Source: an uncultured virus (IMG/VR IMGVR_UViG_3300035698_018388)
Taxonomy: Duplodnaviria; Heunggongvirae; Uroviricota; Caudoviricetes
Direction: 5' to 3' (one strand)
IMG/VR virus record: IMGVR_UViG_3300035698_018388
DNA: 64,000 nucleotides
The notes below the pieces were generated by a model. That model was not told the origin of the DNA, searched no databases, and saw only the letters and a program-made list of their open reading frames with translations. This document shows positions 5,249-58,995 of the stretch, piece after piece (positions within the stretch are counted from its first letter, which is position 1; every line of letters starts with the position of its first letter). Made by a program: the position numbers and the translations under genes.

Positions 5249-5953
5249 CTATTCGGGTCTATCAAACCCATCACCAAAAGCGGTAAATTCAAATCCGCCA
5301 CCATATCGAACATCGAAAGACACATCGAAACAACGGCCAAAACCACCCTCAAGATGCGAATCCGATGGTAAAGAAGCAAAACATGGGCCAAACCCCCTAT
5401 CAAATTCTGGCCCCTCAATAATGACTTGAAGCGTTGTATGAGCAGGTTTATATCTTTGAAGAACACAATTCAAAAGTTCAATGCCGGGAGCATATATTAA
5501 TGGATCGCCACTTTCACTTCCTCCAGATCGAAAGTAAATCCATTCATCTCCATACTCCATGTTGACTTGCCACTTAAAAGTATCTGCGGCAAACTCAGTT
5601 ATCGTAACAGTATATCCAAAGGTTGCCATTAAATCAATATAATACTGTTTGTCTTGTCTTCCTATTGCTGTTAACTTCGCATGAACAATACTCCTCCTTT
5701 GTTGTAATGTTTCTGCCAATTCAGAACATTCATCTGGTATTCCAAGATCGATTTCATGATCTGTTATTAATTCCGTAGTATAACGAGTATCCCTTTCTGT
5801 TAGTAAATCATTTGCTCTTGACTCCACACGAGCAAATTCATCTGCCAATCCCTTTAAAAAACTTGCAAGAATAGAATCTTCATCCAGATTCCATGCTTTC
5901 CCTCTTGGGAGCAAGGATTGGAATAATCTAAAATAATCCGTTGCATTTTTCAT
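5249..5953 (-). CDS. baseplate wedge protein, Mu gp48/YmfQ (DUF2313) family
   Basis: LLPRGKAW, L..LA.E..RV, G.PD.C, KPAHT motifs; directly after baseplate J. Confidence 0.9.
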   Translation of the reverse strand: MKNATDYFRLFQSLLPRGKAWNLDEDSILASFLKGLADEFARVESRANDLLTERDTRYTTELITDHEIDLGIPDECSELAETLQQRRSIVHAKLTAIGRQDKQYYIDLMATFGYTVTITEFAADTFKWQVNMEYGDEWIYFRSGGSESGDPLIYAPGIELLNCVLQRYKPAHTTLQVIIEGPEFDRGFGPCFASLPSDSHLEGGFGRCFDVSFDVRYGGGFEFTAFGDGFDRPE

Positions 5954-5968
5954 ATAATCATCCGTTGA

Positions 5969-7066
5969 TTAATAATCGTTAAATGTAACTGTTCCGAGAA
6001 CATGAACTTGCGTATTTGTTGCCGTTGAATCTAAAATAGGACTTGTTAAAACGTGTCTTACTTCTCCGATACTTTGACTTATTGCCTCATTAATATTTGA
6101 AAGATAAACAGTTTCGCCGGGGCCACCATCACGAAGTAATAGATCCTCTAAATTCTCTTCAATCGAATCTTGAACAGCAGACGTATTAGGAGAAAGAGTG
6201 ATTACAAAGTTTACAGCCAACTCGGTAATCGTAATGACTTCAAGCCCCGGTTCTGCAGTTACAGGAATACCAACGGTTTCGCCAGTATAAGGATCCTCAT
6301 GCTCAATTATATACGCTTCTACAATTGCCCTTTCAGCAAGACTTGGAACAATACTTCCAGAATCATCGTCTCGAACAAATGCAACACCAACAGTTCCAAC
6401 ACCATTATATTGAGGGAAGCACCATGCTCTTGTAACCCCTGCGACTTCTTTTGCCCAAGTAATATAATCAAAATCAGCACCACCATGAGGCGGCTGTCTT
6501 TTTCTTGCCAATACTCTTTCTCTTAATGATGAATCTATTTCCTTATCGGTACCACCAGAAATACCATCGGCATCTACAGTTACAGAAGTATTTACTCCAG
6601 CAATAGGACTTACAAATGTTAACGTTATCCCTGCATCATCATTAGCATCTTCTCCTCCAATTCCAGCAGTAAAAGCAAGTGTCCCCGCTCCAGCAACAAG
6701 AGTAACATCTGCATCAGTAGTATATGTATATCCGTTTGTAGAAACAAGTTCAGAACCTTCTGGAATTAATATTCCTGTTGTTCCTATTATCGCCCCAGAT
6801 CCAACTGCAAATTCTGCCGCTTTTCTAACAACACCATATTCAGAAGCAATCGCATCTAACCCCGCACTATCTGAAGTTGTCGCAAAAAGTTGTTTTGACA
6901 TATAATCTAAATATTCATATAAAAGATGAACGACACCAGCAACAATGCGAGCGATTACTCCAAGGACAGACCGACGAAGTAAAGAACTTGCCCCTTCAAT
7001 CCTTGTTTGAAAATCAGATAAAATCCGATCTATAATAGTTTGTAATGACGAACGGCTAAAAGGCAT
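5969..7066 (-). CDS. baseplate J / Mu gp47-like protein
   Basis: GG.D.E....LR.R, PPHGG...DY..WA..V.GV.RAW, GTVGV motifs. Confidence 0.95.
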   Translation of the reverse strand: MPFSRSSLQTIIDRILSDFQTRIEGASSLLRRSVLGVIARIVAGVVHLLYEYLDYMSKQLFATTSDSAGLDAIASEYGVVRKAAEFAVGSGAIIGTTGILIPEGSELVSTNGYTYTTDADVTLVAGAGTLAFTAGIGGEDANDDAGITLTFVSPIAGVNTSVTVDADGISGGTDKEIDSSLRERVLARKRQPPHGGADFDYITWAKEVAGVTRAWCFPQYNGVGTVGVAFVRDDDSGSIVPSLAERAIVEAYIIEHEDPYTGETVGIPVTAEPGLEVITITELAVNFVITLSPNTSAVQDSIEENLEDLLLRDGGPGETVYLSNINEAISQSIGEVRHVLTSPILDSTATNTQVHVLGTVTFNDY

Positions 7067-7084: not shown

Positions 7085-8476
7085 TTAATAAGATGATTGA
7101 GATTTCCATTGCAATTCATATTTAAACGTTTTTACATTGTCATACTGCTGATAAATTTCAACAAGCAAAGCAAGAATATCATTTCCAACGATTCCAATTC
7201 GATCCACAGTAATATTAATTTTTACAGCAACTCCATCATCAAGCATCCATTTTAGGGCTTCTTCGGCATATATCTTTGCTTTCGCAAGAACTATTTCTTC
7301 TGTTTTCTCCCTACTTAATAACCATAATCGTGAACCGATTTGATCTCCTTCTACTTCTGGCCTTGCAAGATCTCCCCACCATCCACGGAGATCAATATTA
7401 TTTACATCCGGTAAAATATCGTCTTCATTTGCCCGACGATCTGAAAAAAGACTTATGATAACTGCTGTTTCAAGTCCTTCATCAGTTGACAAATCATTTG
7501 TATCCGATATTTCTTGTCTTCCGAGATGGACAAGCTCAAGCGAAAAATCATCAAGAATAAAGAAACTAACAGGGACAACATATTCAAATTTAATTTTAAG
7601 CCCGTATGCATCAACAGGACAAACAAAATTGTTTATCTCGTGAGTTCCATTTTCATAAGCAACATAAGTACTATGAGGAGTAATTGGGTTATCATTTATA
7701 TCGGTAAATAAAATATGAGCAGATTCTCCAACCCCCAATTCGGAAAGCACAAAAGATAAATTGTATACTGCATTTTTAATTAAAGAAACTGATTTATATA
7801 CTTCAGCATCCCAAAAAGTATAAAGACTTAATTTATATTCTGGCCCGGTAATAGGATCGAAAGAAGGATAGAATCTTTTCCCATCTATATCCCAATCGAA
7901 AATAGAATATTCATCAACAACAATATTTTTTAGATAAAATTTATCATTCCCGCCTAAATCTTGAAATGTAATTACGCCTCCATCCGATGCATAAAATTTT
8001 AGAACATTTCCCCCATAGAACCAATATTCAGCATCGGTAGCAACACCCAAGACAGAAAAATCAGATCCTCCAGAATTGTATCTAATTCCATCAATATTAC
8101 TTTGTCCTACCGGAATATAATATCTAAAACTTATTTTATATAACCTTCCATACGTTGTTGACCCAAGTTGCTTGTATGCAAAATGAGCACCATTTACATC
8201 ATTGCAAGTATATTCTAACCAATTATCTTCTCCTGCAATAGTTACCGGAGCAGACAAAGTTCCCGTTACTGGAGGATAAACATAAGATTTCCAATTATCT
8301 TCATCAATAATAAAATTAGAAATATACCAGTCAGTATGCTGTGATAATTGGCTAAAGTCACCATTCGCAATAAGATTTCCAACCGCCGGGGGAGCAGAAA
8401 AGATTTTGTTTCCAATAAAATTAAAATCCCCCTCCATCAAATCTAAATCCCAAGCTATTTTAATATCTCCTGACAT
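7085..8476 (-). CDS. Mu gp46-like baseplate protein with large internal insertion
   Basis: C-terminal LETAVIISLFSDRRA, GWWGD, GSRLWLL.REK, YAEEAL.W..DDG motifs of gp46. Confidence 0.85.
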   Translation of the reverse strand: MSGDIKIAWDLDLMEGDFNFIGNKIFSAPPAVGNLIANGDFSQLSQHTDWYISNFIIDEDNWKSYVYPPVTGTLSAPVTIAGEDNWLEYTCNDVNGAHFAYKQLGSTTYGRLYKISFRYYIPVGQSNIDGIRYNSGGSDFSVLGVATDAEYWFYGGNVLKFYASDGGVITFQDLGGNDKFYLKNIVVDEYSIFDWDIDGKRFYPSFDPITGPEYKLSLYTFWDAEVYKSVSLIKNAVYNLSFVLSELGVGESAHILFTDINDNPITPHSTYVAYENGTHEINNFVCPVDAYGLKIKFEYVVPVSFFILDDFSLELVHLGRQEISDTNDLSTDEGLETAVIISLFSDRRANEDDILPDVNNIDLRGWWGDLARPEVEGDQIGSRLWLLSREKTEEIVLAKAKIYAEEALKWMLDDGVAVKINITVDRIGIVGNDILALLVEIYQQYDNVKTFKYELQWKSQSSY

Positions 8477-8477
8477 T

Positions 8478-9128
8478 TTACGATGCCCTTGTTTTAGAAG
8501 TTAAATGTGCTGCCCCCAAAGTCGTTGTTGGTGCTCCAGTATTACCCGGCCCAACATCTACTCCGCTATGAACATGATCATTAAACAAATCAGTAAAACG
8601 ACTATCAACAAGTTCCCGTACAGATGCCCACTCAGCGCTACCAAGCATTACCTGTTTTGAATCAATTGCATGTGACGATAAATTTGTATGTAATTCAGTA
8701 GGAACAGTAGTAGTTTTAATTGTATCAAATGTCTCTATTAATTGATCGCCTTTAACATCGAAAATTCTTCCAGTCTTTAAATGAATTCTAAAAGAAGAAG
8801 TTTTATCTTCACTTGTATATAATGCAACTTCTCCTTCTATTAAATCAGTCGGTCTATACCTCCGGTCGTGGACGCAAAGAGCAATTCCATGACCCCGATT
8901 ACCATTTAAAAATCCTATAAAAACTTCTGCTTCGGCAAGTGGATAAGTTTCAAGACCATATTCTTGAAAGCGTTCTATGCCTGTAATTACTTCATCACTT
9001 AAAGCCATAACCTGAACCGTTTGTGTACTCTCACTATTATCAATTGCATACAATATAGCTCTTCCGAGTAAAAGAAATATCTTTTTTCTTATCGGATCTG
9101 TTAATCTTTTAAAATCTCTAAGGTTCAT
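8478..9128 (-). CDS. baseplate spike, Mu gp45/gpV-like
   Basis: ERFQEYG, G.R.H, D.RYRP..L..GEV.LY motifs; C-terminal H.H (HVHSGV). Confidence 0.9.
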   Translation of the reverse strand: MNLRDFKRLTDPIRKKIFLLLGRAILYAIDNSESTQTVQVMALSDEVITGIERFQEYGLETYPLAEAEVFIGFLNGNRGHGIALCVHDRRYRPTDLIEGEVALYTSEDKTSSFRIHLKTGRIFDVKGDQLIETFDTIKTTTVPTELHTNLSSHAIDSKQVMLGSAEWASVRELVDSRFTDLFNDHVHSGVDVGPGNTGAPTTTLGAAHLTSKTRAS

Positions 9129-9137
9129 TCTGTACTC

Positions 9138-10307
9138 CTAATTATCAATTTCTTCGGTCTCAGTTAACACCCGCTTATATTTACTCCAATCGAATTTTGT
9201 CGCAATACCTTCAATTGGTGTTTCTATAAGTTTAAAAGTTTCAGGATCAACAACATTTATACTTGTTACTGAACCACCATCAACATCAAGAGTAAAAGAA
9301 GTAGAAGCAATCAATAATTCCTTGTGAACCCCTAATAAATCATCCTTAACATTAACCAGAGAATTTAAAGGCCAAACCTTTCCATTTGTTTGAGTCCATC
9401 CTTGAACGATATACTCAATACTTCTTGACTTCCCTGCCCGATTTCTCGCCTCCCAACTTGCCCGATCCTTACATCTTCTTAGATCACCTGCTGTTTCTAA
9501 AAAGAAAACCATCGGTCTATATCTTAAAATAACATTATCCCATGCTTCACCAGATGGATTAGTCGTTGCAAACAAAGACTTCGCATCCTTCCCAACGCCC
9601 TGCCCTTTTACTATATACTTTTGGAACCTGTCTTTATTTGATTGCTCCATAGCCGCAGATATTATGTTTACACCAAATTCAAGAGCGTCACTTGCCTTCG
9701 CAACCGTTCCCGCTCTTGTTAATGTTAATTTCCCATCACCATAACTAACAGGAAGAATCGCTTTTGCATTACAAAGAGAAATAATTAAATCAAAAACAAC
9801 ATCCCCTTCATTTGCTTTAAATGATTCTGGAACTATATATTTTACGACATCAGTAACAGAACTATCAACAACAACATTTATATTATATGGTTTACACAAG
9901 GCCTTTACAATAGACAGAAGACTTTGCCCAGAGAATTCAGTTTCATTTGACGTTTCCCAAAAACTTTTTGGCTTTACTGATTTTACTTTTGTTTTTACGA
10001 AAGAACAATCCACAAGGTCTGCCGTTTTATCTCTACCTCCAACTTGAATGCTATGGCTTTCAGAATCATATGCAATCGGAATGTCTTCTATATAACCTTT
10101 TATGATTGACTGTCCATTTATTTCTACAACGCATTTATCTCCAAGTTTAAAATCCCACTTATCTCCATGACCGGGATATTTATCGGTTACAGATAATCCA
10201 AATGCTCCTGTCATTTGATATAAAGACTTATCAATTTGTGCAGAAGTCCATCCGTCAAATCGCTTGCCGTTTACGCTTAGAACGGGTATGTTTCTTTTAT
10301 CATTCAT
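9138..10307 (-). CDS. baseplate hub, Mu gp44/gpP-like
   Basis: F.GW, GRDKTADLVDCS, RA.WE...RAG, GW....G..W..N motifs. Confidence 0.9.
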   Translation of the reverse strand: MNDKRNIPVLSVNGKRFDGWTSAQIDKSLYQMTGAFGLSVTDKYPGHGDKWDFKLGDKCVVEINGQSIIKGYIEDIPIAYDSESHSIQVGGRDKTADLVDCSFVKTKVKSVKPKSFWETSNETEFSGQSLLSIVKALCKPYNINVVVDSSVTDVVKYIVPESFKANEGDVVFDLIISLCNAKAILPVSYGDGKLTLTRAGTVAKASDALEFGVNIISAAMEQSNKDRFQKYIVKGQGVGKDAKSLFATTNPSGEAWDNVILRYRPMVFFLETAGDLRRCKDRASWEARNRAGKSRSIEYIVQGWTQTNGKVWPLNSLVNVKDDLLGVHKELLIASTSFTLDVDGGSVTSINVVDPETFKLIETPIEGIATKFDWSKYKRVLTETEEIDN

Positions 10308-11835
10308 TTAAAATATTAATCTCCACACCACCCGGTAAAAATCCGGGATGTTTTATTGTCGGAGTATTTCTTTCAATAATTTCCTTTTCACGATCCAAAT
10401 TCATATACTTATCATATGCAACTGTTAATGTAGAAGTAACATCAACACCAATCAAAACGGTTTGTGTTTTTGAAAGAGATGAAGTAATTGCCTCCATTGC
10501 CCGAACAAAAATAGGTCTAAAATTTTTCAAAGCCTCATAAGAATATGGATCTGAAATAGATATATTGTAATCTGAATATGTAACATTTTCTGAATCGTTT
10601 CCAAGTTTAAGAAGAAAAGCATCTATGGCATCTAAAATATTATCTCTAACTTCAATAGCCATTTCGTAACTCGTATATTTTATTCTGACAGCAGTACGAG
10701 CAGCAATCAGAATTGAATTCAATCTCATAAAATTAACTGTTGCAACTGTATTTGCAGACTCAATTGCTCTTGTCTTTGTTGTAATATTTATGACCGGTAA
10801 AACTCCTCCATATTTATTATCCGTTGATACCGTTGTATCACCAAAAGAGTTTAATGCCAAACATGAATCAACAGTTGTCTTTCCAACAATTTCAGGTATG
10901 CTTCCAGAATCAGAAGTCGTACTTGCTTCATATCCTCCTGTTGTTAATTTTGATTCTGAATCCGTAGATGCACCGGACATAGGACCGGAAGAAATACCCC
11001 TTACAACGGCGCTACAAGGCCCAAACAACTGTTCAATTATTGTATCACCATACATACCACCAAAACTTAATAATCCATTTAACATTCCTACTGCTTTATT
11101 TGCAAAAGAACAAGTGTCTGCTATTTCCGGTAAAGTAATTGCAGAATATGATTCGGAAAGGTATCTTAATGCTTCTGCAACTTGAGTAGGCATTGCCCCT
11201 TGAACAGCAAGTGTTACCTGTTTTATCATAACATTTAAACTATCCATAGAACTCTTAATTGAATCTGCAACAAATCCAACAGAGTTTGCATAAACATTTC
11301 CAAGTCCGTCCTTTGAATCTTCTATTGCTTCTGACACAGCAACATCAACATCCCCGACAGGATCTTGAACTATTTCTGGCTGTTTAGATACAACATTATC
11401 ACCTTCGCCAAGTGGAGTAGATGCCGCCCCTACTTGAACAAAAGTCATTGTAAAATTAGCAATGCCGCCCCTTGAAAATGACTCTGCTATACTTGCCTTG
11501 CCAACAAGATTTACTTTTACACTTCCAAAAAATGGATGAATTAATGTTCCCGGACCCTTCTCTTTAAGGGCCGCAATTAATCGATCTCTTTCATCGAAGT
11601 AATCTTGACCGTTCTCTTTGTTCTGAACGACATATCCAGTAATCGTAAATTCTGAAACATCAAGGCCAAGATCTTCAATATATGGATCGTCCTTTTTAGG
11701 ATACCGATGAACAACAGTTTTCCTCCCGATACTTGCATCAGTATTGCTTACAAAGAAAAAAGCATTTCTAAAAGAAGCCTTCTTCCTTAGTTTATTCGAT
11801 GCGTCTGCCCAACTTAATCGATCTTTCCAAGACAT
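10300..11835 (-). CDS. Mu gpN-like DNA circularisation/tail protein
   Basis: ASFR...F.V, GR....H.YP....YIEDLG, GPGTLIHP.FG, C-terminal HPGFLP. Confidence 0.9.
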   Translation of the reverse strand: MSWKDRLSWADASNKLRKKASFRNAFFFVSNTDASIGRKTVVHRYPKKDDPYIEDLGLDVSEFTITGYVVQNKENGQDYFDERDRLIAALKEKGPGTLIHPFFGSVKVNLVGKASIAESFSRGGIANFTMTFVQVGAASTPLGEGDNVVSKQPEIVQDPVGDVDVAVSEAIEDSKDGLGNVYANSVGFVADSIKSSMDSLNVMIKQVTLAVQGAMPTQVAEALRYLSESYSAITLPEIADTCSFANKAVGMLNGLLSFGGMYGDTIIEQLFGPCSAVVRGISSGPMSGASTDSESKLTTGGYEASTTSDSGSIPEIVGKTTVDSCLALNSFGDTTVSTDNKYGGVLPVINITTKTRAIESANTVATVNFMRLNSILIAARTAVRIKYTSYEMAIEVRDNILDAIDAFLLKLGNDSENVTYSDYNISISDPYSYEALKNFRPIFVRAMEAITSSLSKTQTVLIGVDVTSTLTVAYDKYMNLDREKEIIERNTPTIKHPGFLPGGVEINILNE

Positions 11836-48683: not shown

Positions 48684-48740
48684 TTTCTAATTTCATCGGT
48701 GCTTTACTTGAAAGGGTAAAGCACTCATTGAAGATAGAAA
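48684..48740 (+). repeat. type A intergenic stem (RNase III-like), copy 1
   Basis: tttctaatttcatcg-gtgctttac..gtaaagcac-tcattgaagatagaaa. Confidence 0.75.
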
Positions 48741-50605: not shown

Positions 50606-50680
50606 CCTATTAGGTCTTGTGCTGGACAGGATTGCTCCTGTCCATTGGGTGAAACGTCAAGTGGCAAGAGACTTGACATA
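50606..50680 (+). ncRNA. permuted pistol-like element, divergent core
   Basis: ccta, TTAGG, tcttgt, GCT, P3 ggacagga/tcctgtcc, AT, tggg; P1 gtcaagt/acttgac loop contains gcaaga. Confidence 0.6.
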
Positions 50681-52521: not shown

Positions 52522-52591
52522 TGTCGAAACGGGGAGCCTAACGTTCCCCTTCTATGTAAAGTGATTCTTTGCATATTGATAAGACAAATCA
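52522..52591 (+). ncRNA. hammerhead ribozyme, type II (U3-A8 core variant)
   Basis: tgtc-GAAAc-ggggagc/gttcccc-tTC-stem I-TTGATAA-gaca-aatca; predicted cut after 52552. Confidence 0.82.
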
Positions 52592-52622
52592 ATTTTATTC
52601 ATAATTAACTAAGGAGGAGAAA

Positions 52623-54192: not shown

Positions 54193-54360
54193 ATGAAAAA
54201 GGCAATTGGAAAAAAAGAAATTATTGAAATTTTTGAATTCGATCCAAAATGGAGAAAAGACGGAACAAGTCTACCACTTTGCCGACATCTTCGCCGTCTT
54301 CTCCCCGCTTACAAAAAAGAAAATGGATACCGAATTGAAATTACAGAAGTTAAACCTTAA
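54193..54360 (+). CDS. hypothetical protein (55 aa)
   Basis: MKKAIGKKEIIEIFEF...; AAGGAGGAGAA RBS. Confidence 0.7.
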   Translation: MKKAIGKKEIIEIFEFDPKWRKDGTSLPLCRHLRRLLPAYKKENGYRIEITEVKP

Positions 54361-54429
54361 CAGCAGATAGCCATTAGGATCTGTGCGGTAGCAAGTAATT
54401 GGAAGATTACTTGCTACGTTGGCTAAAAA
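54361..54429 (+). ncRNA. pistol-like element lacking P1, copy 1
   Basis: gcagat, agcca, TTAGG, atctgt, GCG, P3 gtagcaagtaat/attacttgctac, GT, tggct; predicted cut 54418/54419. Confidence 0.65.
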
Positions 54430-54464
54430 TTTTATTAATGTAAAAACAAAATAAGGAGGAGAAA

Positions 54465-54689
54465 ATGAAAAAAATTGTAATCACTCTTGGCAAGAACGGT
54501 TCTAAGAAAGTTGAAACTTTTGGTTTCAGCGGCCCGAGTTGTAAAGAGCAAACCGGCTTTCTAAATAATATTTTTGGCGCTCCTGTAGAATCGGAGTTAA
54601 AACCAGAATTTTATGAAGAAAACGAAACGGAGTCTAACGTAATGTTAGATGTTCACGGACTGCCTGAAGGTGGCCGCTTTTGCGGATAA
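54465..54689 (+). CDS. DUF2997-like protein
   Basis: I.I....G...V...GF.G.SC...T.......G......LKPEFY. Confidence 0.8.
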   Translation: MKKIVITLGKNGSKKVETFGFSGPSCKEQTGFLNNIFGAPVESELKPEFYEENETESNVMLDVHGLPEGGRFCG

Positions 54690-54735
54690 AAAAATCTTTA
54701 AAAAATATAATCCGTTATCCAAAAGGAGAAAAGAA

Positions 54736-55107
54736 ATGAGCCATATTTCAACTTTTTCTGAAAGAATCAAAAACGTCAAGAAGCTTGTAGAGATTGCAAA
54801 AAAATGTGGTTATGAAGTAAAAGAAGATGTGACCGTAACCATGTTCGGTTCTCAAAAGGTTTTTAATGCCGTCTCTATTTCACTCCCCAAATGGGGATAT
54901 CCGGTTGCCATTAGTTCTGTTGGAGACGTTCTTTATGATTTCTTCGGCGCTGAAAAAGGACCGGGGGTTTTTGAACAGCTTGGCAGTCTTGTCCAAAATT
55001 ACAATGAAGCAATTGTAATGGATGAAATTCAGTATGATTGCATCACAAGCGTCGATACCATAGAAAACAAAACCACCGGAGATCGTGTCATTACAATCAC
55101 AATCTAA
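54736..55107 (+). CDS. DUF1257/Ycf35-like protein
   Basis: MSHIST..., LP.W.YPV, YD...G...L..L.Q.Y; AAGGAG RBS. Confidence 0.75.
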   Translation: MSHISTFSERIKNVKKLVEIAKKCGYEVKEDVTVTMFGSQKVFNAVSISLPKWGYPVAISSVGDVLYDFFGAEKGPGVFEQLGSLVQNYNEAIVMDEIQYDCITSVDTIENKTTGDRVITITI

Positions 55108-55167
55108 TTTCTGTTTTAACGCTTGCCTTTGATTTAAGGAGGTCAAAGGCAATCATGAAGATAGAAG
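55108..55167 (+). repeat. type A-related intergenic stem, copy 8
   Basis: Near-identical to copy 7. Confidence 0.7.
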
Positions 55168-55202
55168 TTAATATTAACACAACACCAAACAAGGAGGAGA
55201 AA

Positions 55203-55502
55203 ATGGAAAAGAAATTTGCACAATCAATTTTGGATGCTGCCGAAATAAGAGAAGAATCTTATGATAATGTTGCAGCAGAAACAGCATCAAGAAAAGAAAA
55301 GTATCCAGATTTTTCAACATATTATCGGAAGACGATTGTAAAATCGGCGGAAGAATCTTGCAAGAAAAACAAGATTAATGAAGCCTTTGCAGAAGTCATC
55401 GATTGGGCTTTGTATTCCCATTGGAATGACATCATCGATTGGGCTCAACGAATTCTTGGAAAAGTTAATGCCCATGAGAAAAAAAAGAATAACAATTTCT
55501 AA
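55203..55502 (+). CDS. hypothetical early protein
   Basis: AAGGAGGAGAA RBS before ATG 55203. Confidence 0.75.
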   Translation: MEKKFAQSILDAAEIREESYDNVAAETASRKEKYPDFSTYYRKTIVKSAEESCKKNKINEAFAEVIDWALYSHWNDIIDWAQRILGKVNAHEKKKNNNF

Positions 55503-55550
55503 TTTCTTCGGTGCCGTAACTTCGGTTATGGCACTCATAGAAAATAGAAG
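55496..55550 (+). repeat. type A intergenic stem, copy 9 (cUUCGg loop)
   Basis: gtgccgtaac-ttcg-gttatggcac. Confidence 0.75.
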
Positions 55551-55580
55551 TAAACAACAACAACATAAGGAGGAGAACCG

Positions 55581-55931
55581 ATGAGAACTAAAATTGCAAG
55601 AAACGAATGTCTTTTCTGTAATTTGTTTAATGGTTTTGTATGCGAATGGGGGAATTCCGAAGATTGGAAGTTTGTCTTCCATAACCACATGACCAAGTCG
55701 ATGATCGATGACTCCCTCCAGAAATGCCGCTTGGTCACGGAGGCAAACAGGATCACGGATACCAGAATCAAGATCGAAAGGTTCTGGGGATTCAAAATAA
55801 ACAAACAGGTCGGTCCCAAAAGAACGTTCCTGTTCATTGCCCCGTTATATGTCAAACTGATTAAGGAGTATATCACCAATTTCGCTTTCACAATTCCCGT
55901 TCACTTCTGGAAAATGAAATCCAATTTCTAA
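55581..55931 (+). CDS. hypothetical early protein
   Basis: AAGGAGGAGAA RBS. Confidence 0.7.
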   Translation: MRTKIARNECLFCNLFNGFVCEWGNSEDWKFVFHNHMTKSMIDDSLQKCRLVTEANRITDTRIKIERFWGFKINKQVGPKRTFLFIAPLYVKLIKEYITNFAFTIPVHFWKMKSNF

Positions 55932-55981
55932 TTTCATCGGTGTCATACTTTGAGGAGTATGACACTCATTGAAGATAGAAA
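55925..55981 (+). repeat. type A intergenic stem, copy 10
   Basis: Near-identical to copy 5. Confidence 0.75.
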
Positions 55982-56006
55982 ACAACAACAACATAAGGAG
56001 GAGAAA

Positions 56007-56270
56007 ATGAAATTTTTAACGTGCAAAGAAAGAATGGAAAAAATAAGAAAAATAAAAGATGAAGCAAAAAAACCAATCGAATGCAAAAGCTGCGGAATGG
56101 AAATTTCAAGAACGGCAAAAACCTGCCCCTATTGCGGAGAATTGGCATCAGGTGAAAAGGTAGCCCAAGCAGGGAAGGCAATGATCTTCTTCGGTTTGGG
56201 ATTTATCGGTGTAATTGGGTTAGTTGCATTTGGATTAATTATTTTTGCAATTATATTTGGGAATGTATAG
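56007..56270 (+). CDS. zinc-ribbon membrane protein
   Basis: C.SCG.EIS..A..CPYCG plus C-terminal TM; AAGGAGGAGAA RBS. Confidence 0.75.
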   Translation: MKFLTCKERMEKIRKIKDEAKKPIECKSCGMEISRTAKTCPYCGELASGEKVAQAGKAMIFFGLGFIGVIGLVAFGLIIFAIIFGNV

Positions 56271-56272
56271 GG

Positions 56273-56342
56273 TGTCGAAACGGGGAGCGTTATGCTCCTC
56301 TTCTATGTAAAGTGATTCTTTACATATTGATAAGACAAATCA
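56273..56342 (+). ncRNA. hammerhead ribozyme, type II (U3-A8 variant)
   Basis: Stem III ggggagc/gctcctc, stem I tatgtaaag/ctttacata; predicted cut after 56303. Confidence 0.82.
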
Positions 56343-56377
56343 AAAGCAACTAACAGCTAACTAAGGAGGAGAAAAAA

Positions 56378-56803
56378 ATGGAAAACAAAGCAAAAGAAAA
56401 AAAACCGAAAAAAGGAACAATCAAAAAGAAAAGAATGCCAATTATTAAAAACAAAAAAGATGAATTTATGGCGATTGTAAAAAGGATTCAATCGGCCAGT
56501 CCAAAAGAACTCGATCAGTTAAAAGAAGACATTGGTGTTTTAACTGATCAGATTGAAGAAAAAGAAAGTGGCCTTGCCGAAATAAAAGAAATGACACTTG
56601 AAGCAGAAAAGGCATTTGTAAAAGCCAAAAAAATCTTTGAAAGGATTACCCAAAACGGGGATAAATTTTTCAAAGACAAAAAAGGACCAATCAATTCGGA
56701 TATAATCAATTTCCTTTTCACCGAACAAGAACATGATACAATCAAAGAGTATTTATATACAATCGAAGAGTTGTTCGATTTTTACGCTACCTTGACAGAT
56801 TAG
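56378..56803 (+). CDS. hypothetical coiled-coil protein
   Basis: AAGGAGGAGAA RBS. Confidence 0.75.
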   Translation: MENKAKEKKPKKGTIKKKRMPIIKNKKDEFMAIVKRIQSASPKELDQLKEDIGVLTDQIEEKESGLAEIKEMTLEAEKAFVKAKKIFERITQNGDKFFKDKKGPINSDIINFLFTEQEHDTIKEYLYTIEELFDFYATLTD

Positions 56804-56875
56804 TGTCGAAACGGCGAGGGCAAGACCCTCGCCTTCTATGTAAAGTGATTCTTTGCATATTGATAAGACAAATCA
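56804..56875 (+). ncRNA. hammerhead ribozyme, type II (U3-A8 variant)
   Basis: Stem III ggcgaggg/ccctcgcc; predicted cut after 56836. Confidence 0.82.
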
Positions 56876-56913
56876 ATTTTATTAACGTAACAATTAAATA
56901 AGGAGGAGAACCA

Positions 56914-58014
56914 ATGAAGTTAATCGGATTTGGTAGTACAGTAAAAGGAACAGCAATTCATGGGATTATGGGGATTCGTGAAGGGGTAAAGAAAAATTCT
57001 GCTCTTTGCGATAAAAGAATCGTCGGGCTTATTATCGACAAGGGTTTGACTGCCGAAATGGTAACTTGCAAAAAGTGTTTAAAGAAGGCCTCTATCTTAA
57101 AAGGGGAAAAACCCAAAAAGAAAGCACCGGACAAAAAAGCACTTTCGCAAACAACTCCTGTTCCGGCAAAGAAGACTCCAGCACCGGTAAAGGAAACGGC
57201 TAAGAAGCCACCTATAAAGCCCAAGGCAACACCCAAAACACCGGTCAAGCCCAAAACCAAACCGGTCAAAAAAGCACCGGTTAAAAAGGCACCTGCTAAA
57301 AAAGCATCTGCTGCTGTTCCACCGAAAACAAAGCAAAAACAAATTGAACTACCGCTGAAGGCTTTAAATGAATTCAAACTCGATCAACAATCAACAAACG
57401 GTTTATTTTTTATAACTCATACTCCATCTGAAAAAGTCTTCTTCAAAAACATTGAAGCCGGTCTCGCAACCGAAATTTTGAAAATTGTAAATCAACTGAC
57501 CGTCGGTTGGAATGGGAAAGAAAGTCTTCCCAAGGAATTTCGGTCTTCCGTTCTTACTGCATTTAAACAGGCTCATGTAAATTTGGAATTGGCCCTGCCA
57601 ACAAAATTTGAAGAACGGGAAGAAAAGGAACAAAATGATGAACCGCCGAAAATAACAAGACGGGGAGTCAAAAAAGGTAATTCCAAAACGGAAACGAAAA
57701 TAACAAGACGCCATGCAAAAAAAAGATCAACTGTTAATATTGATCAGCCGATTACAAGGAGAAAAAGGACTCCAACAAAGGTTGTCCGGCACTTCTTACA
57801 TTATGGAGGACAACTTACATCTGTTCTGGTTGAACTGGTAACCGAATTTGGGTTTACCGAAACCAGAGCACAAGCAAAATTCAAATCTATTCTCCGGAAA
57901 ATAACCAGAATACAAAGAAGAACGGTCGTTCATACCATAACAAATCACCCGTTAAACGACCACTACATTTTTTTACCGTCAAGAAAATTACCGGAAGATG
58001 AAGCTAAGGAATAA
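56914..58014 (+). CDS. basic protein with Lys/Pro/Ala-rich (histone H1-like) linker and ITRR repeats
   Basis: PAKK/PVKK repeats, N-terminal Cys cluster, three ITRR motifs. Confidence 0.75.
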   Translation: MKLIGFGSTVKGTAIHGIMGIREGVKKNSALCDKRIVGLIIDKGLTAEMVTCKKCLKKASILKGEKPKKKAPDKKALSQTTPVPAKKTPAPVKETAKKPPIKPKATPKTPVKPKTKPVKKAPVKKAPAKKASAAVPPKTKQKQIELPLKALNEFKLDQQSTNGLFFITHTPSEKVFFKNIEAGLATEILKIVNQLTVGWNGKESLPKEFRSSVLTAFKQAHVNLELALPTKFEEREEKEQNDEPPKITRRGVKKGNSKTETKITRRHAKKRSTVNIDQPITRRKRTPTKVVRHFLHYGGQLTSVLVELVTEFGFTETRAQAKFKSILRKITRIQRRTVVHTITNHPLNDHYIFLPSRKLPEDEAKE

Positions 58015-58021
58015 ACCTTAA

Positions 58022-58089
58022 CAGCAGATAGCCATTAGGATCTGTGCGGTAGTACTCAATTGGAGGACTGAGTACTGCGTTGGCTAAAA
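58022..58089 (+). ncRNA. pistol-like element lacking P1, copy 2
   Basis: Core identical to 54361 copy, different P3 (gtagtactca/tgagtactgc); predicted cut 58079/58080. Confidence 0.65.
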
Positions 58090-58119
58090 TAAATTAATAA
58101 ACAACATAAGGAGGAGAAA

Positions 58120-58995
58120 ATGAAAAGTCAGAAGGTAGATCTTCACGAAGACGGAATTCTTATTTCCATAAAGATTAGAAAGTGGGATGCTCGTAAATCG
58201 CAGAATGTCAAACAATTAGGAAAAGACATTCCCGCTGAAATTATTAGAGCATCGAAAAGTCTTATTGATGACCGAACCGTTCTCAAGGACTTTTCCCGGC
58301 TTGGAAGGGAGGCAAAACATTTTATAAAAATGAATAGTGCTCCTTTCCCGGTTGATAGTGTTTTCTGGATTCCCAAAGAAAGAGTAATTGCCATAGACGA
58401 AAAGCTCATTGATATCGAACAAAGATTTACAGTTTTAAAAAATGAGCTTGCAAAAAACATCGGCAAATTTCAGAAGCGTTATGCAAAAAAATATCCTGCA
58501 TTTTATGACCCTGAAAAATATCCCTCTCCAGAAGAAATAAAAGCAAAATTTAATATCAAATGGAGATTCTTTGATATGACATTACCAACAACAAAGAAAG
58601 GTCTTTCTGTAAAGATGCTTCGCCGAGAAGAAGAAAAAGCAAAACAAATGGTGAAGGAAATTGAAGAAATGACCCTCAATATGTTTGGTAATGCGATCAT
58701 AAGAAGACTTGCGAAACTGAATACTCAGTGTAGCGATGGCAGGGCAAATCAGGGAACTTTAAATTCGATAAATAAACTTCTGAAAAATTGGGAAGACCTC
58801 TGGGGTAATCATGTTGACGATAACTCCTTCAGAATGGCAATCAACCGAATTAAAAAACAAATGAAAAAAACAGATGCGGTAAGACTCAGGGACAACGATG
58901 ATTTCAGAAACAAAGTCGAAAAGGAAACTAAAAAGATCATCGGCAAAATTAAGAACGTTCCCAACTTCCAGTTGAACCGAAAAATTTCTTTGTAA
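58120..58995 (+). CDS. DUF3150-like protein
   Basis: I.I..W..RK, K.LID, FWIP, YP....I..KF...W pattern; AAGGAGGAGAA RBS. Confidence 0.6.
   Translation: MKSQKVDLHEDGILISIKIRKWDARKSQNVKQLGKDIPAEIIRASKSLIDDRTVLKDFSRLGREAKHFIKMNSAPFPVDSVFWIPKERVIAIDEKLIDIEQRFTVLKNELAKNIGKFQKRYAKKYPAFYDPEKYPSPEEIKAKFNIKWRFFDMTLPTTKKGLSVKMLRREEEKAKQMVKEIEEMTLNMFGNAIIRRLAKLNTQCSDGRANQGTLNSINKLLKNWEDLWGNHVDDNSFRMAINRIKKQMKKTDAVRLRDNDDFRNKVEKETKKIIGKIKNVPNFQLNRKISL

Follow-up and report, generated by a model that had tools for sequence, protein, structure and literature searches.

Two pistol-like RNA elements without a P1 hairpin at gene boundaries of an uncultured phage: candidate minimal pistol ribozymes

Introduction

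An uncultured virus of the class Caudoviricetes (IMG/VR record IMGVR_UViG_3300035698_018388), analyzed here as a single stretch of 64,000 nucleotides (nt) that is referred to as the window, contains two copies of an element that carries the core letters of the pistol self-cleaving ribozyme and has no P1 hairpin. The question raised by this locus is whether a pistol can be held together, and can cut, without P1. The comparisons described below favor the interpretation, to which a probability of about 0.6 is assigned, that both copies are active minimal pistol ribozymes in which the pseudoknot would be formed by a 5' single strand. On sequence grounds, the two copies are pistol-derived and conserved.

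Canonical pistols, exemplified by env25 and env27, have P2, P3, the U-U-A-R-G segment, a 6-nt pseudoknot strand, the G-C-G segment, the G|U cleavage dinucleotide and an occurrence in phage spacers in common with the window copies. By contrast, the canonical form includes a P1 hairpin and an AAA linker, whereas the window copies have neither, and their putative pseudoknot partner is a 5' strand contiguous with P2. Excerpts of the structural literature describe a stack of P1, the pseudoknot helix and part of P3, with P2 opposite the pseudoknot helix (PMC6154101), conserved linker residues A19-A21 that make A-minor contacts in the P1 minor groove (PMC6101554), and an active site in the three-way junction that P2, P3 and the G33-C41 pair form, in a comparison that sets pistol P2, P3 and pseudoknot beside the stems of the hammerhead (PMC6795133).

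Sequence and anatomy of the two copies

Both copies lie on the + strand, at 54351-54429 (copy 1) and 58012-58089 (copy 2), where the original prediction had placed them, and the identical block that it described is exactly 41 nt long on reading of the sequence (TAAACC...GGTAG; 54351-54391 and 58012-58052), with different bases flanking the block. After P3, a further 11 nt are common to the two copies (GTTGGCTAAAA), giving core identities of 41/41 and 11/11 positions, and the same 21 nt are found at the start of the following gene (ATAAGGAGGAGAAAATGAAAA). With up to three mismatches allowed, the window contains two occurrences of a 23-nt core stretch, compared with an expectation of zero from 100 shuffles. 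The anatomy collected in Table 1 was parsed with a structural descriptor; copy 2 has the anatomy of copy 1 at an offset of +3661.

Table 1. Parsed features of the pistol-like elements. Positions are those of the window unless locus L092 is named; P2' is the 3' strand of P2.
Feature	Position	Strand	Basis or remark
Copy 1, conserved 5' block UAAACCUUAACA	54351-54362	+	Same in both copies
Copy 1, putative pseudoknot partner GCAGAU, single strand abutting the 5' side of P2	54363-54368	+	
Copy 1, P2 5' strand AGCCA, pairs with UGGCU at 54420-54424	54369-54373	+	P2 covaries among nine elements
Copy 1, UUAGG	54374-54378	+	Conserved Rfam Pistol positions
Copy 1, AUCUGU, pseudoknot strand	54379-54384	+	Rfam Pistol alignment
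Copy 1, GCG	54385-54387	+	Conserved Rfam Pistol positions
Copy 1, P3 hairpin, 13 base pairs	54388-54417	+	Compensatory differences relative to copy 2
Copy 1, predicted cleavage dinucleotide G|U	54418/54419	+	Two-base junction between P3 and P2'; Rfam alignment and descriptor
Copy 1, P2 3' strand UGGCU	54420-54424	+	Descriptor parse
Copy 1, A-run	54425-54429	+	GUUGGCUAAAA after P3 is the same in both copies
Copy 2, conserved 5' block	58012-58023	+	UAA at 58012-58014 is the stop of the open reading frame 56914-58014
Copy 2, putative pseudoknot partner GCAGAU	58024-58029	+	
Copy 2, P2 strand AGCCA, UUAGG, AUCUGU and GCG	58030-58048	+	Same letters as copy 1
Copy 2, P3 hairpin, 10 base pairs, sequence unlike copy 1	58049-58078	+	
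Copy 2, predicted G|U, P2 3' strand UGGCU (58081-58085) and A-run	58079-58089	+	Predicted cut 58079/58080
Third pistol-like element of the window, relocated-P1 type	50606-50677	+	Descriptor parse
Six elements of the related phage genome G002 (locus L092)	5506-5585, 5825-5895, 6901-6971, 8442-8512, 9522-9602, 10457-10535		

In both copies, no base separates GCAGAU from P2, no hairpin presents this partner and P1 is absent. The AAA linker that connects P1 to P2 is likewise absent; AUA alone precedes P2, and the run of A residues stands 3' of P2' instead. The claim that the partner sits directly 5' of P2, with no P1 or AAA linker and an A-run behind P2', was thus confirmed in the sequence. P2 is extendable to 6 base pairs (bp; UAGCCA/UGGCUA), in which case it would share the last base of the partner.

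The P3 stems had been described as different yet paired, and this was upheld by stems of 13 and 10 bp that differ by compensatory changes. Among the first ten positions of the stems, four carry double compensatory changes between the copies and one carries a single change, and 15 of the 26 positions of the P3 interior are identical; these change and identity counts come from manual reading of the alignment together with the descriptor parse. P3 pairs were counted for each element by script, and MAFFT did not align P3 across elements. Only RNA of the + strand is compatible with the G-U pairs that P3 and the pseudoknot contain.

Despite the differing stems, both P3 loops (54400-54409 and 58061-58070) read AAUUGGARGA, and the loop of copy 2 contains the Shine-Dalgarno-like GGAGG; no pairing partner for AAUUGGARGA was found. 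As a further observation, the 5' block and the start of P2 (54351-54370 and 58012-58031) hold a stop codon in each of the three frames (UAA, UAA and UAG, at 54351, 54358 and 54368 in copy 1). Such an arrangement fits a portable cassette in which upstream translation would end before the ribozyme core whatever its frame.

Membership in the pistol class

The relationship of the copies to the pistol class was assessed against the Rfam Pistol family (RF02679; gathering cut-off 34.5 bits, model length 68). No match was obtained when the whole window was compared with Rfam at gathering thresholds. In a permissive search of 271 nt, copy 1 scored 24.2 bits (E 0.013) in an alignment covering model positions 21-68 of 68, in which all conserved core letters are placed, GU falls at the two-base junction, and P1 and most of the linker are outside. 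This supports the earlier statement that the pistol core is intact, and the predicted cleavage positions of both copies agree with the same alignment. An Rfam scan of the whole window gave no further relevant match. The hammerhead motifs CUGANGA and GAAA are absent from both elements, and no hammerhead model matched the region.

The original prediction left a choice between a rearranged or minimal pistol and a related new self-cleaving motif. The former is supported by the Rfam alignment, by elements found before the same genes in a related phage and by two-strand changes in P2 and the pseudoknot; the label of a new motif is unnecessary because the core is that of pistol.

Relocated-P1 elements in the window and a related phage

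An IMG/VR search with the ATPase of the window identified two related phages: G002, whose homologue in locus L092 is 56% identical and which is a complete 65.6-kb genome with terminal repeats, and G004 (locus L093; 42% identity). G002 contains six pistol-like elements within ∼5 kb, two of which score 29.1 and 27.1 bits against Rfam Pistol. Element Lb of G002 is directly upstream of a DUF2997 homologue (58% identity) and element Le is directly upstream of a DUF3150 homologue (50% identity); in the window, a DUF2997 gene follows copy 1 and a DUF3150 gene follows copy 2.

The 5' half of the G002 elements comprises, in order, an A-rich flank, P2 UCCCU (CCCG once), UUARG, UCUUGU and GCG (GCU once), and the 3' half comprises P3, GU, P2', a linker of 4-6 nt, a hairpin with an RGCAAGAR loop and an A-rich tail. 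Because GCAAGA can pair with UCUUGU, the hairpin is P1, located 3' of the core in a circular permutation of the canonical order. The third element of the window is of this type: P2 CCUA, UUAGG, UCUUGU, GCU, P3, A|U (50644/50645), UGGG and a 6-nt linker are followed by a P1 hairpin at 50656-50677 whose loop carries GCAAGA. Among these seven relocated-P1 elements, the P1 stem has four different sequences, all of them paired, and the highest Rfam score is 29.1 bits. When the descriptor was applied to 266 sequences (377,729 nt), it returned the nine elements of Table 1, their repeats in overlapping loci and five minimal chance matches only. All nine are below the Rfam cut-off or were not reported, and the existence of natural P1-less and 3'-P1 layouts would explain why such copies escape standard models.

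GCU replaces GCG in two relocated-P1 elements, namely that of the window (50621-50623), where it accompanies A|U (50644), and L092 9538-9540, where it accompanies G|U (9567). The combination of GCU and cleavage site may reflect covariation of the positions equivalent to G42 and G53, residues that touch in crystal structures according to the available text of PMC6795133.

The relocated-P1 elements and the window copies are alike in their core letters, in their sites before the DUF2997 and DUF3150 genes and in a pseudoknot ending in G-C and U-G. UUAGG, GCG and GU are unchanged between the window and G002 forms. P2, by contrast, is AGCCA/UGGCU in the window form versus UCCCU/AGGGA in G002, and in the pseudoknot, AUCUGU:GCAGAU versus UCUUGU:GCAAGA, both strands differ at three positions. 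The location of the partner also differs, being a 5' single strand in the window form and a 3' hairpin loop in G002; the relocated-P1 elements keep their 3' P1, attached by the 4-6-nt linker, and their A-rich tail, whereas the window copies have neither hairpin nor tail. The 3' flank of copy 2 resembles the post-P1 tail of two G002 copies with the hairpin missing, which suggests that loss of the hairpin and gain of the 5' partner turned the 3'-P1 form into the window form. That the pistol clamp has moved within this one clade and has been reduced, in the window copies, to a bare 5' strand fused to P2 is given roughly even odds.

These comparisons bear on the possibility that the copies descend from a pistol but lost cleavage together with P1 and are kept as structured spacers that might, for instance, protect a 3' end, insulate cistrons from one another or provide an RNase of the host or the phage with a site. 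Such roles would be in keeping with the long hairpins of other operon spacers, which resemble sites for protein RNases rather than ribozymes, and with the related phage G004, in which four spacers hold just 61-nt hairpins. They would not require UUAGG, GCG or the two-base G|U junction, yet the catalytic letters are intact in both copies and the same in a relative whose flanking proteins are only 50-58% identical, and the changed pseudoknot strand is matched by a new complementary partner. This explanation is considered unlikely, although it draws further on the low model score and on the mutational data considered below.

Evidence for P2 and the pseudoknot

P2 is supported by covariation. In the nine-element alignment, 96.3% of P2 cells pair, compared with 36-57% when the partner is slid; three of the five pairs change on both sides, and the covariation score was reached by none of 500 shuffles. 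The G-C pair enclosing the pseudoknot strand is invariant in 9/9 elements.

The pseudoknot pairing of the window form is inferred from the sequence. In copy 1, GCAGAU:AUCUGU comprises five Watson-Crick pairs and one G-U pair with a duplex energy of -5.1 kcal/mol, and GCAGAU is the sole 6-mer partner within 40 nt upstream and 60 nt downstream. Nearest-neighbour energies for the window and G002 forms are -5.1 versus -4.9 kcal/mol for the pseudoknot and -7.1 versus -6.0 kcal/mol for P2, so both helices of the window form are predicted to be about as strong as their counterparts in G002. The two nested halves are equally stable, at -22.0 kcal/mol for pseudoknot plus P3 and -22.3 kcal/mol for P2 plus P3. 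A hairpin of CCUUAA with UUAGG, which had been named in advance as a fold that would speak against the motif, does not appear in the minimum-free-energy structures. With regard to covariation of GCAGAU with AUCUGU, proposed as a check, three two-strand changes distinguish the pair from that of G002, and the window form itself is one independent sequence.

Short hairpins 5' of the partner were considered as a stand-in for P1 (GUUAA/UUAAC in copy 1 and UAAGG/CCUUA in copy 2) and were rejected; they occupy different registers and, as replacements for P1, would stack at the wrong end of the pseudoknot. Neither the P3 loop nor the 3' tail was found to have conserved pairing with the 5' block.

Another explanation is a chance resemblance to pistol, or a recent duplication that is neutral and has no function as RNA; the core identity of the copies is as expected from recent duplication. 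The P3 stems, however, differ with compensation, P2 covaries, zero chance matches are expected and homologous elements occupy the same gene positions in a distant relative, making this explanation very improbable.

The conserved 5' block allows a further possibility, namely that an H-type pseudoknot together with the 5' CCUUA controls translation of the next gene, with or without cleavage, for instance through pairing of CCUUA with the Shine-Dalgarno sequence UAAGG, or that the element is a ribozyme dependent on a trans factor. The 5' block and the ribosome-binding region are both identical between the copies, and the fold of a 141-nt stretch of copy 1 does pair CCUUA with the downstream UAAGG (duplex energy -4.9 kcal/mol). 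This pairing is nevertheless of only 5 bp, spans ∼95 nt and is not predicted in copy 2, where an upstream UAAGG competes; moreover, this 5' block is absent from the G002 elements that precede the corresponding genes, and other genes use the same ribosome-binding sequence. A regulatory role of this kind is accordingly viewed as less probable still than a structured spacer without cleavage.

A terminator or promoter reading was ruled out, no terminator-like or promoter-like site being present at copy 1 or copy 2.

Proposed minimal pistol and points that weigh against it

Under the preferred interpretation as active ribozymes, each copy would be a minimal pistol of ∼62 nt in which P2, P3 and the catalytic letters UUAGG, GCG and G|U are canonical. 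The core would be clamped by the 5' single strand GCAGAU running into P2, rather than by a P1 hairpin loop. P1 is absent, as is the A-rich linker that in the canonical form docks into it. Joint loss of P1 and the AAA linker would be coherent because A19-A21 dock in the P1 minor groove. As the crystal structures place P2 and the pseudoknot helix opposite each other, a short link between partner and P2 is plausible: by analogy, the far end of P2 would be near the point at which the partner leaves the pseudoknot helix, and a very short link is conceivable.

The element would be transcribed within a long + strand early operon and would be cut between G54418 and U54419 in copy 1 and between G58079 and U58080 in copy 2. 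The upstream message would then end in the P3/pseudoknot structure with a cyclic phosphate, and the downstream message, encoding the DUF2997 or the DUF3150 protein, would begin with a leader that carries a 5'-OH and is 46 or 40 nt long, respectively.

Several points weigh against this proposal. Disruption of P1 by mutation in a canonical pistol caused a substantial loss of activity that compensatory mutations restored, as reported in the available text of PMC4604425 (Harris 2015), and the score of copy 1 is under the gathering cut-off; both points also favor a pistol that has ceased to cut. Copy 2 gave no reported Pistol match at E values up to 10, although its core is the same as that of copy 1. 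By itself the partner is weak evidence: in 18% of shuffles (3558 and 3621 of 20,000), some 6-mer partner turns up in flanks of 40 nt upstream and 60 nt downstream, and in 0.8-1% (158 and 194 of 20,000) one lies 3 nt or less from P2. The partner is the same in both copies, which thus amount to one independent observation, and the identity of the copies could derive from gene conversion rather than selection. DNA contigs from four runs contain no variant at either element and hence give no population covariation. With no base to link the pseudoknot strand to P2, the fold may be strained. Finally, the family is known from two genomes only among everything that was searched.

Relation to other ribozymes

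Elements of comparable architecture help to place the proposal. The pseudoknot hammerhead (Zhan et al. 2024, PMC11300833), as far as the available text describes it, has a pistol-like secondary structure and connectivity with a pseudoknot clamp, but it possesses the CUGANGA/GAAA core and a stem-loop bearing the partner, whereas the window elements lack that core. More generally, bacterial and phage hammerheads have a three-way-junction core with a varied distal clamp and occur in equivalent spacers of this clade; their catalytic core differs from that of the window elements.

In the available parts of a 2019 review (PMC6765202) and a 2023 study (PMC10085705), hammerhead and twister are the only naturally permuted ribozymes named, and pistol is given one fixed layout with P1 important for activity. 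No natural P1-less or permuted pistol was found in a literature search whose reach did not include Weinberg 2015, Ren 2016 and Nguyen 2017. Mustafina et al. (2021, ACS Synth Biol; cited in PMC10761166) reportedly made a synthetic pistol by circular permutation, and the title of that work, together with the text citing it, suggests that rearranged connectivity can work; that construct is engineered, whereas the window and G002 elements are natural.

If the copies cut, P1 and the A-minor linker, which are held to be very important, would be dispensable, and the minimal natural pistol would be a pseudoknot of ∼62 nt. The 3'-P1 form of the relatives, if correctly assigned, would be the first natural circular permutation of the pistol class. 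If natural P1-less and 3'-P1 forms do occupy equivalent gene positions, the minimal pistol would have to be redefined, and the pair would show how evolution can rewire a small ribozyme's distal clamp.

Database searches for additional copies

When IMG/VR was queried with DNA patterns, exact or degenerate, the matches listed were either chance matches or the G002 copies. A metagenome scan with the ATPase alignment confirmed 6 of 599 candidate stretches, one of which (L094) is identical to the window while the other five, all short contigs, contain no pistol core, and a genome scan confirmed one of 586, the contig L223. Relatives of only ∼24% identity were obtained by tblastn of the ATPase against cultured phages. 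The DUF3150 protein had no relatives in IMG/VR, blastn against GenBank phages gave no match, and the nearest record, G001, does not cover the region. A ribosome-binding 20-mer was found at eight loci, with an element present at two of these, both in G002, and a 20-mer from the hammerhead-like element had zero matches.

Contig L223, filed under a Desulfobacteraceae metagenome-assembled genome, has no pistol core. It carries canonical type II hammerheads at 589-656 and 1741-1807, which score 51.9 and 54.8 bits and exceed the Rfam cut-off, and the 54.8-bit hammerhead is directly upstream of the gene for an ATPase homologue (46% identity).

Gene context and other spacer elements

The DNA runs containing the stretch are labelled as salt lake metagenome. 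All genes between ∼48.6 and 64 kb are on the + strand and include those for an AAA ATPase, DUF2997, DUF3150, a helicase and a primase. Copy 1 is located between an open reading frame of 55 amino acids, which ends at 54358-54360, and the DUF2997 gene, and copy 2 between one of 366 amino acids and the DUF3150 gene; the predicted cuts fall 46 nt (copy 1) and 40 nt (copy 2) ahead of the start codons.

Nearly every spacer of this operon contains one structured element; three of these are pistol-like, three are hammerhead-like and nine or more are long imperfect hairpins. The spacer upstream of the ATPase gene is occupied by a hammerhead-like element in the window, a 3'-P1 pistol in G002, a 61-nt hairpin in G004 and a canonical type II hammerhead in L223. 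Self-cutting or cuttable modules that are interchangeable at gene boundaries point to processing of the early transcript, and we infer from their distribution that such modules would cut a long early transcript into single-gene messages. Interchangeability of pistols, hammerheads and plain hairpins at these slots would make the purpose of phage ribozymes, a long-open question, directly testable.

The hammerhead-like element of the window is a three-way junction present at 52522-52592, 56273-56343 and 56804-56876, with the order UGUC, GAAAC, hairpin, UUC, hairpin, UUGAUAA, GACA, AAUCAA. It fits a type II hammerhead in which U3-A8 replaces C3-G8, a covariation documented in eukaryotic hammerheads (PMC4209133). 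Its loop UGAUU can pair with the tail AAUCA, at the place taken by the UGG/CCA pseudoknot in canonical type II hammerheads. None of the Rfam hammerhead models scored these window junctions.

In G004, the 61-nt hairpin is present as four spacer copies (L093 3818-3878, 6571-6631, 6892-6952 and 8430-8490), including the positions directly before and after the ATPase gene, at which ribozymes occur in other relatives. The imperfect hairpins of the window, at least nine in number and 55-70 nt long, are placed directly at stop codons between 48689 and 56000 (starts near 48689, 49548, 50284, 50909, 51457, 52197, 54078, 55494 and 55923). They take the form UUUCUAAUUUC, a variable stem and CUCAU(N)GAARAUAGAA, match no Rfam family and may represent either processing sites of the RNase III type or an unknown ribozyme.

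In both phages, many of the elements are followed by a nearly identical stretch for ribosome binding (ATAAGGAGGAGAAAATGAAA), for example at 54450-54470 and 58105-58125 in the window and at 5596-5616, among others, in L092. The conserved or copied unit seems to span from the stop codon of one gene to the start codon of the next.

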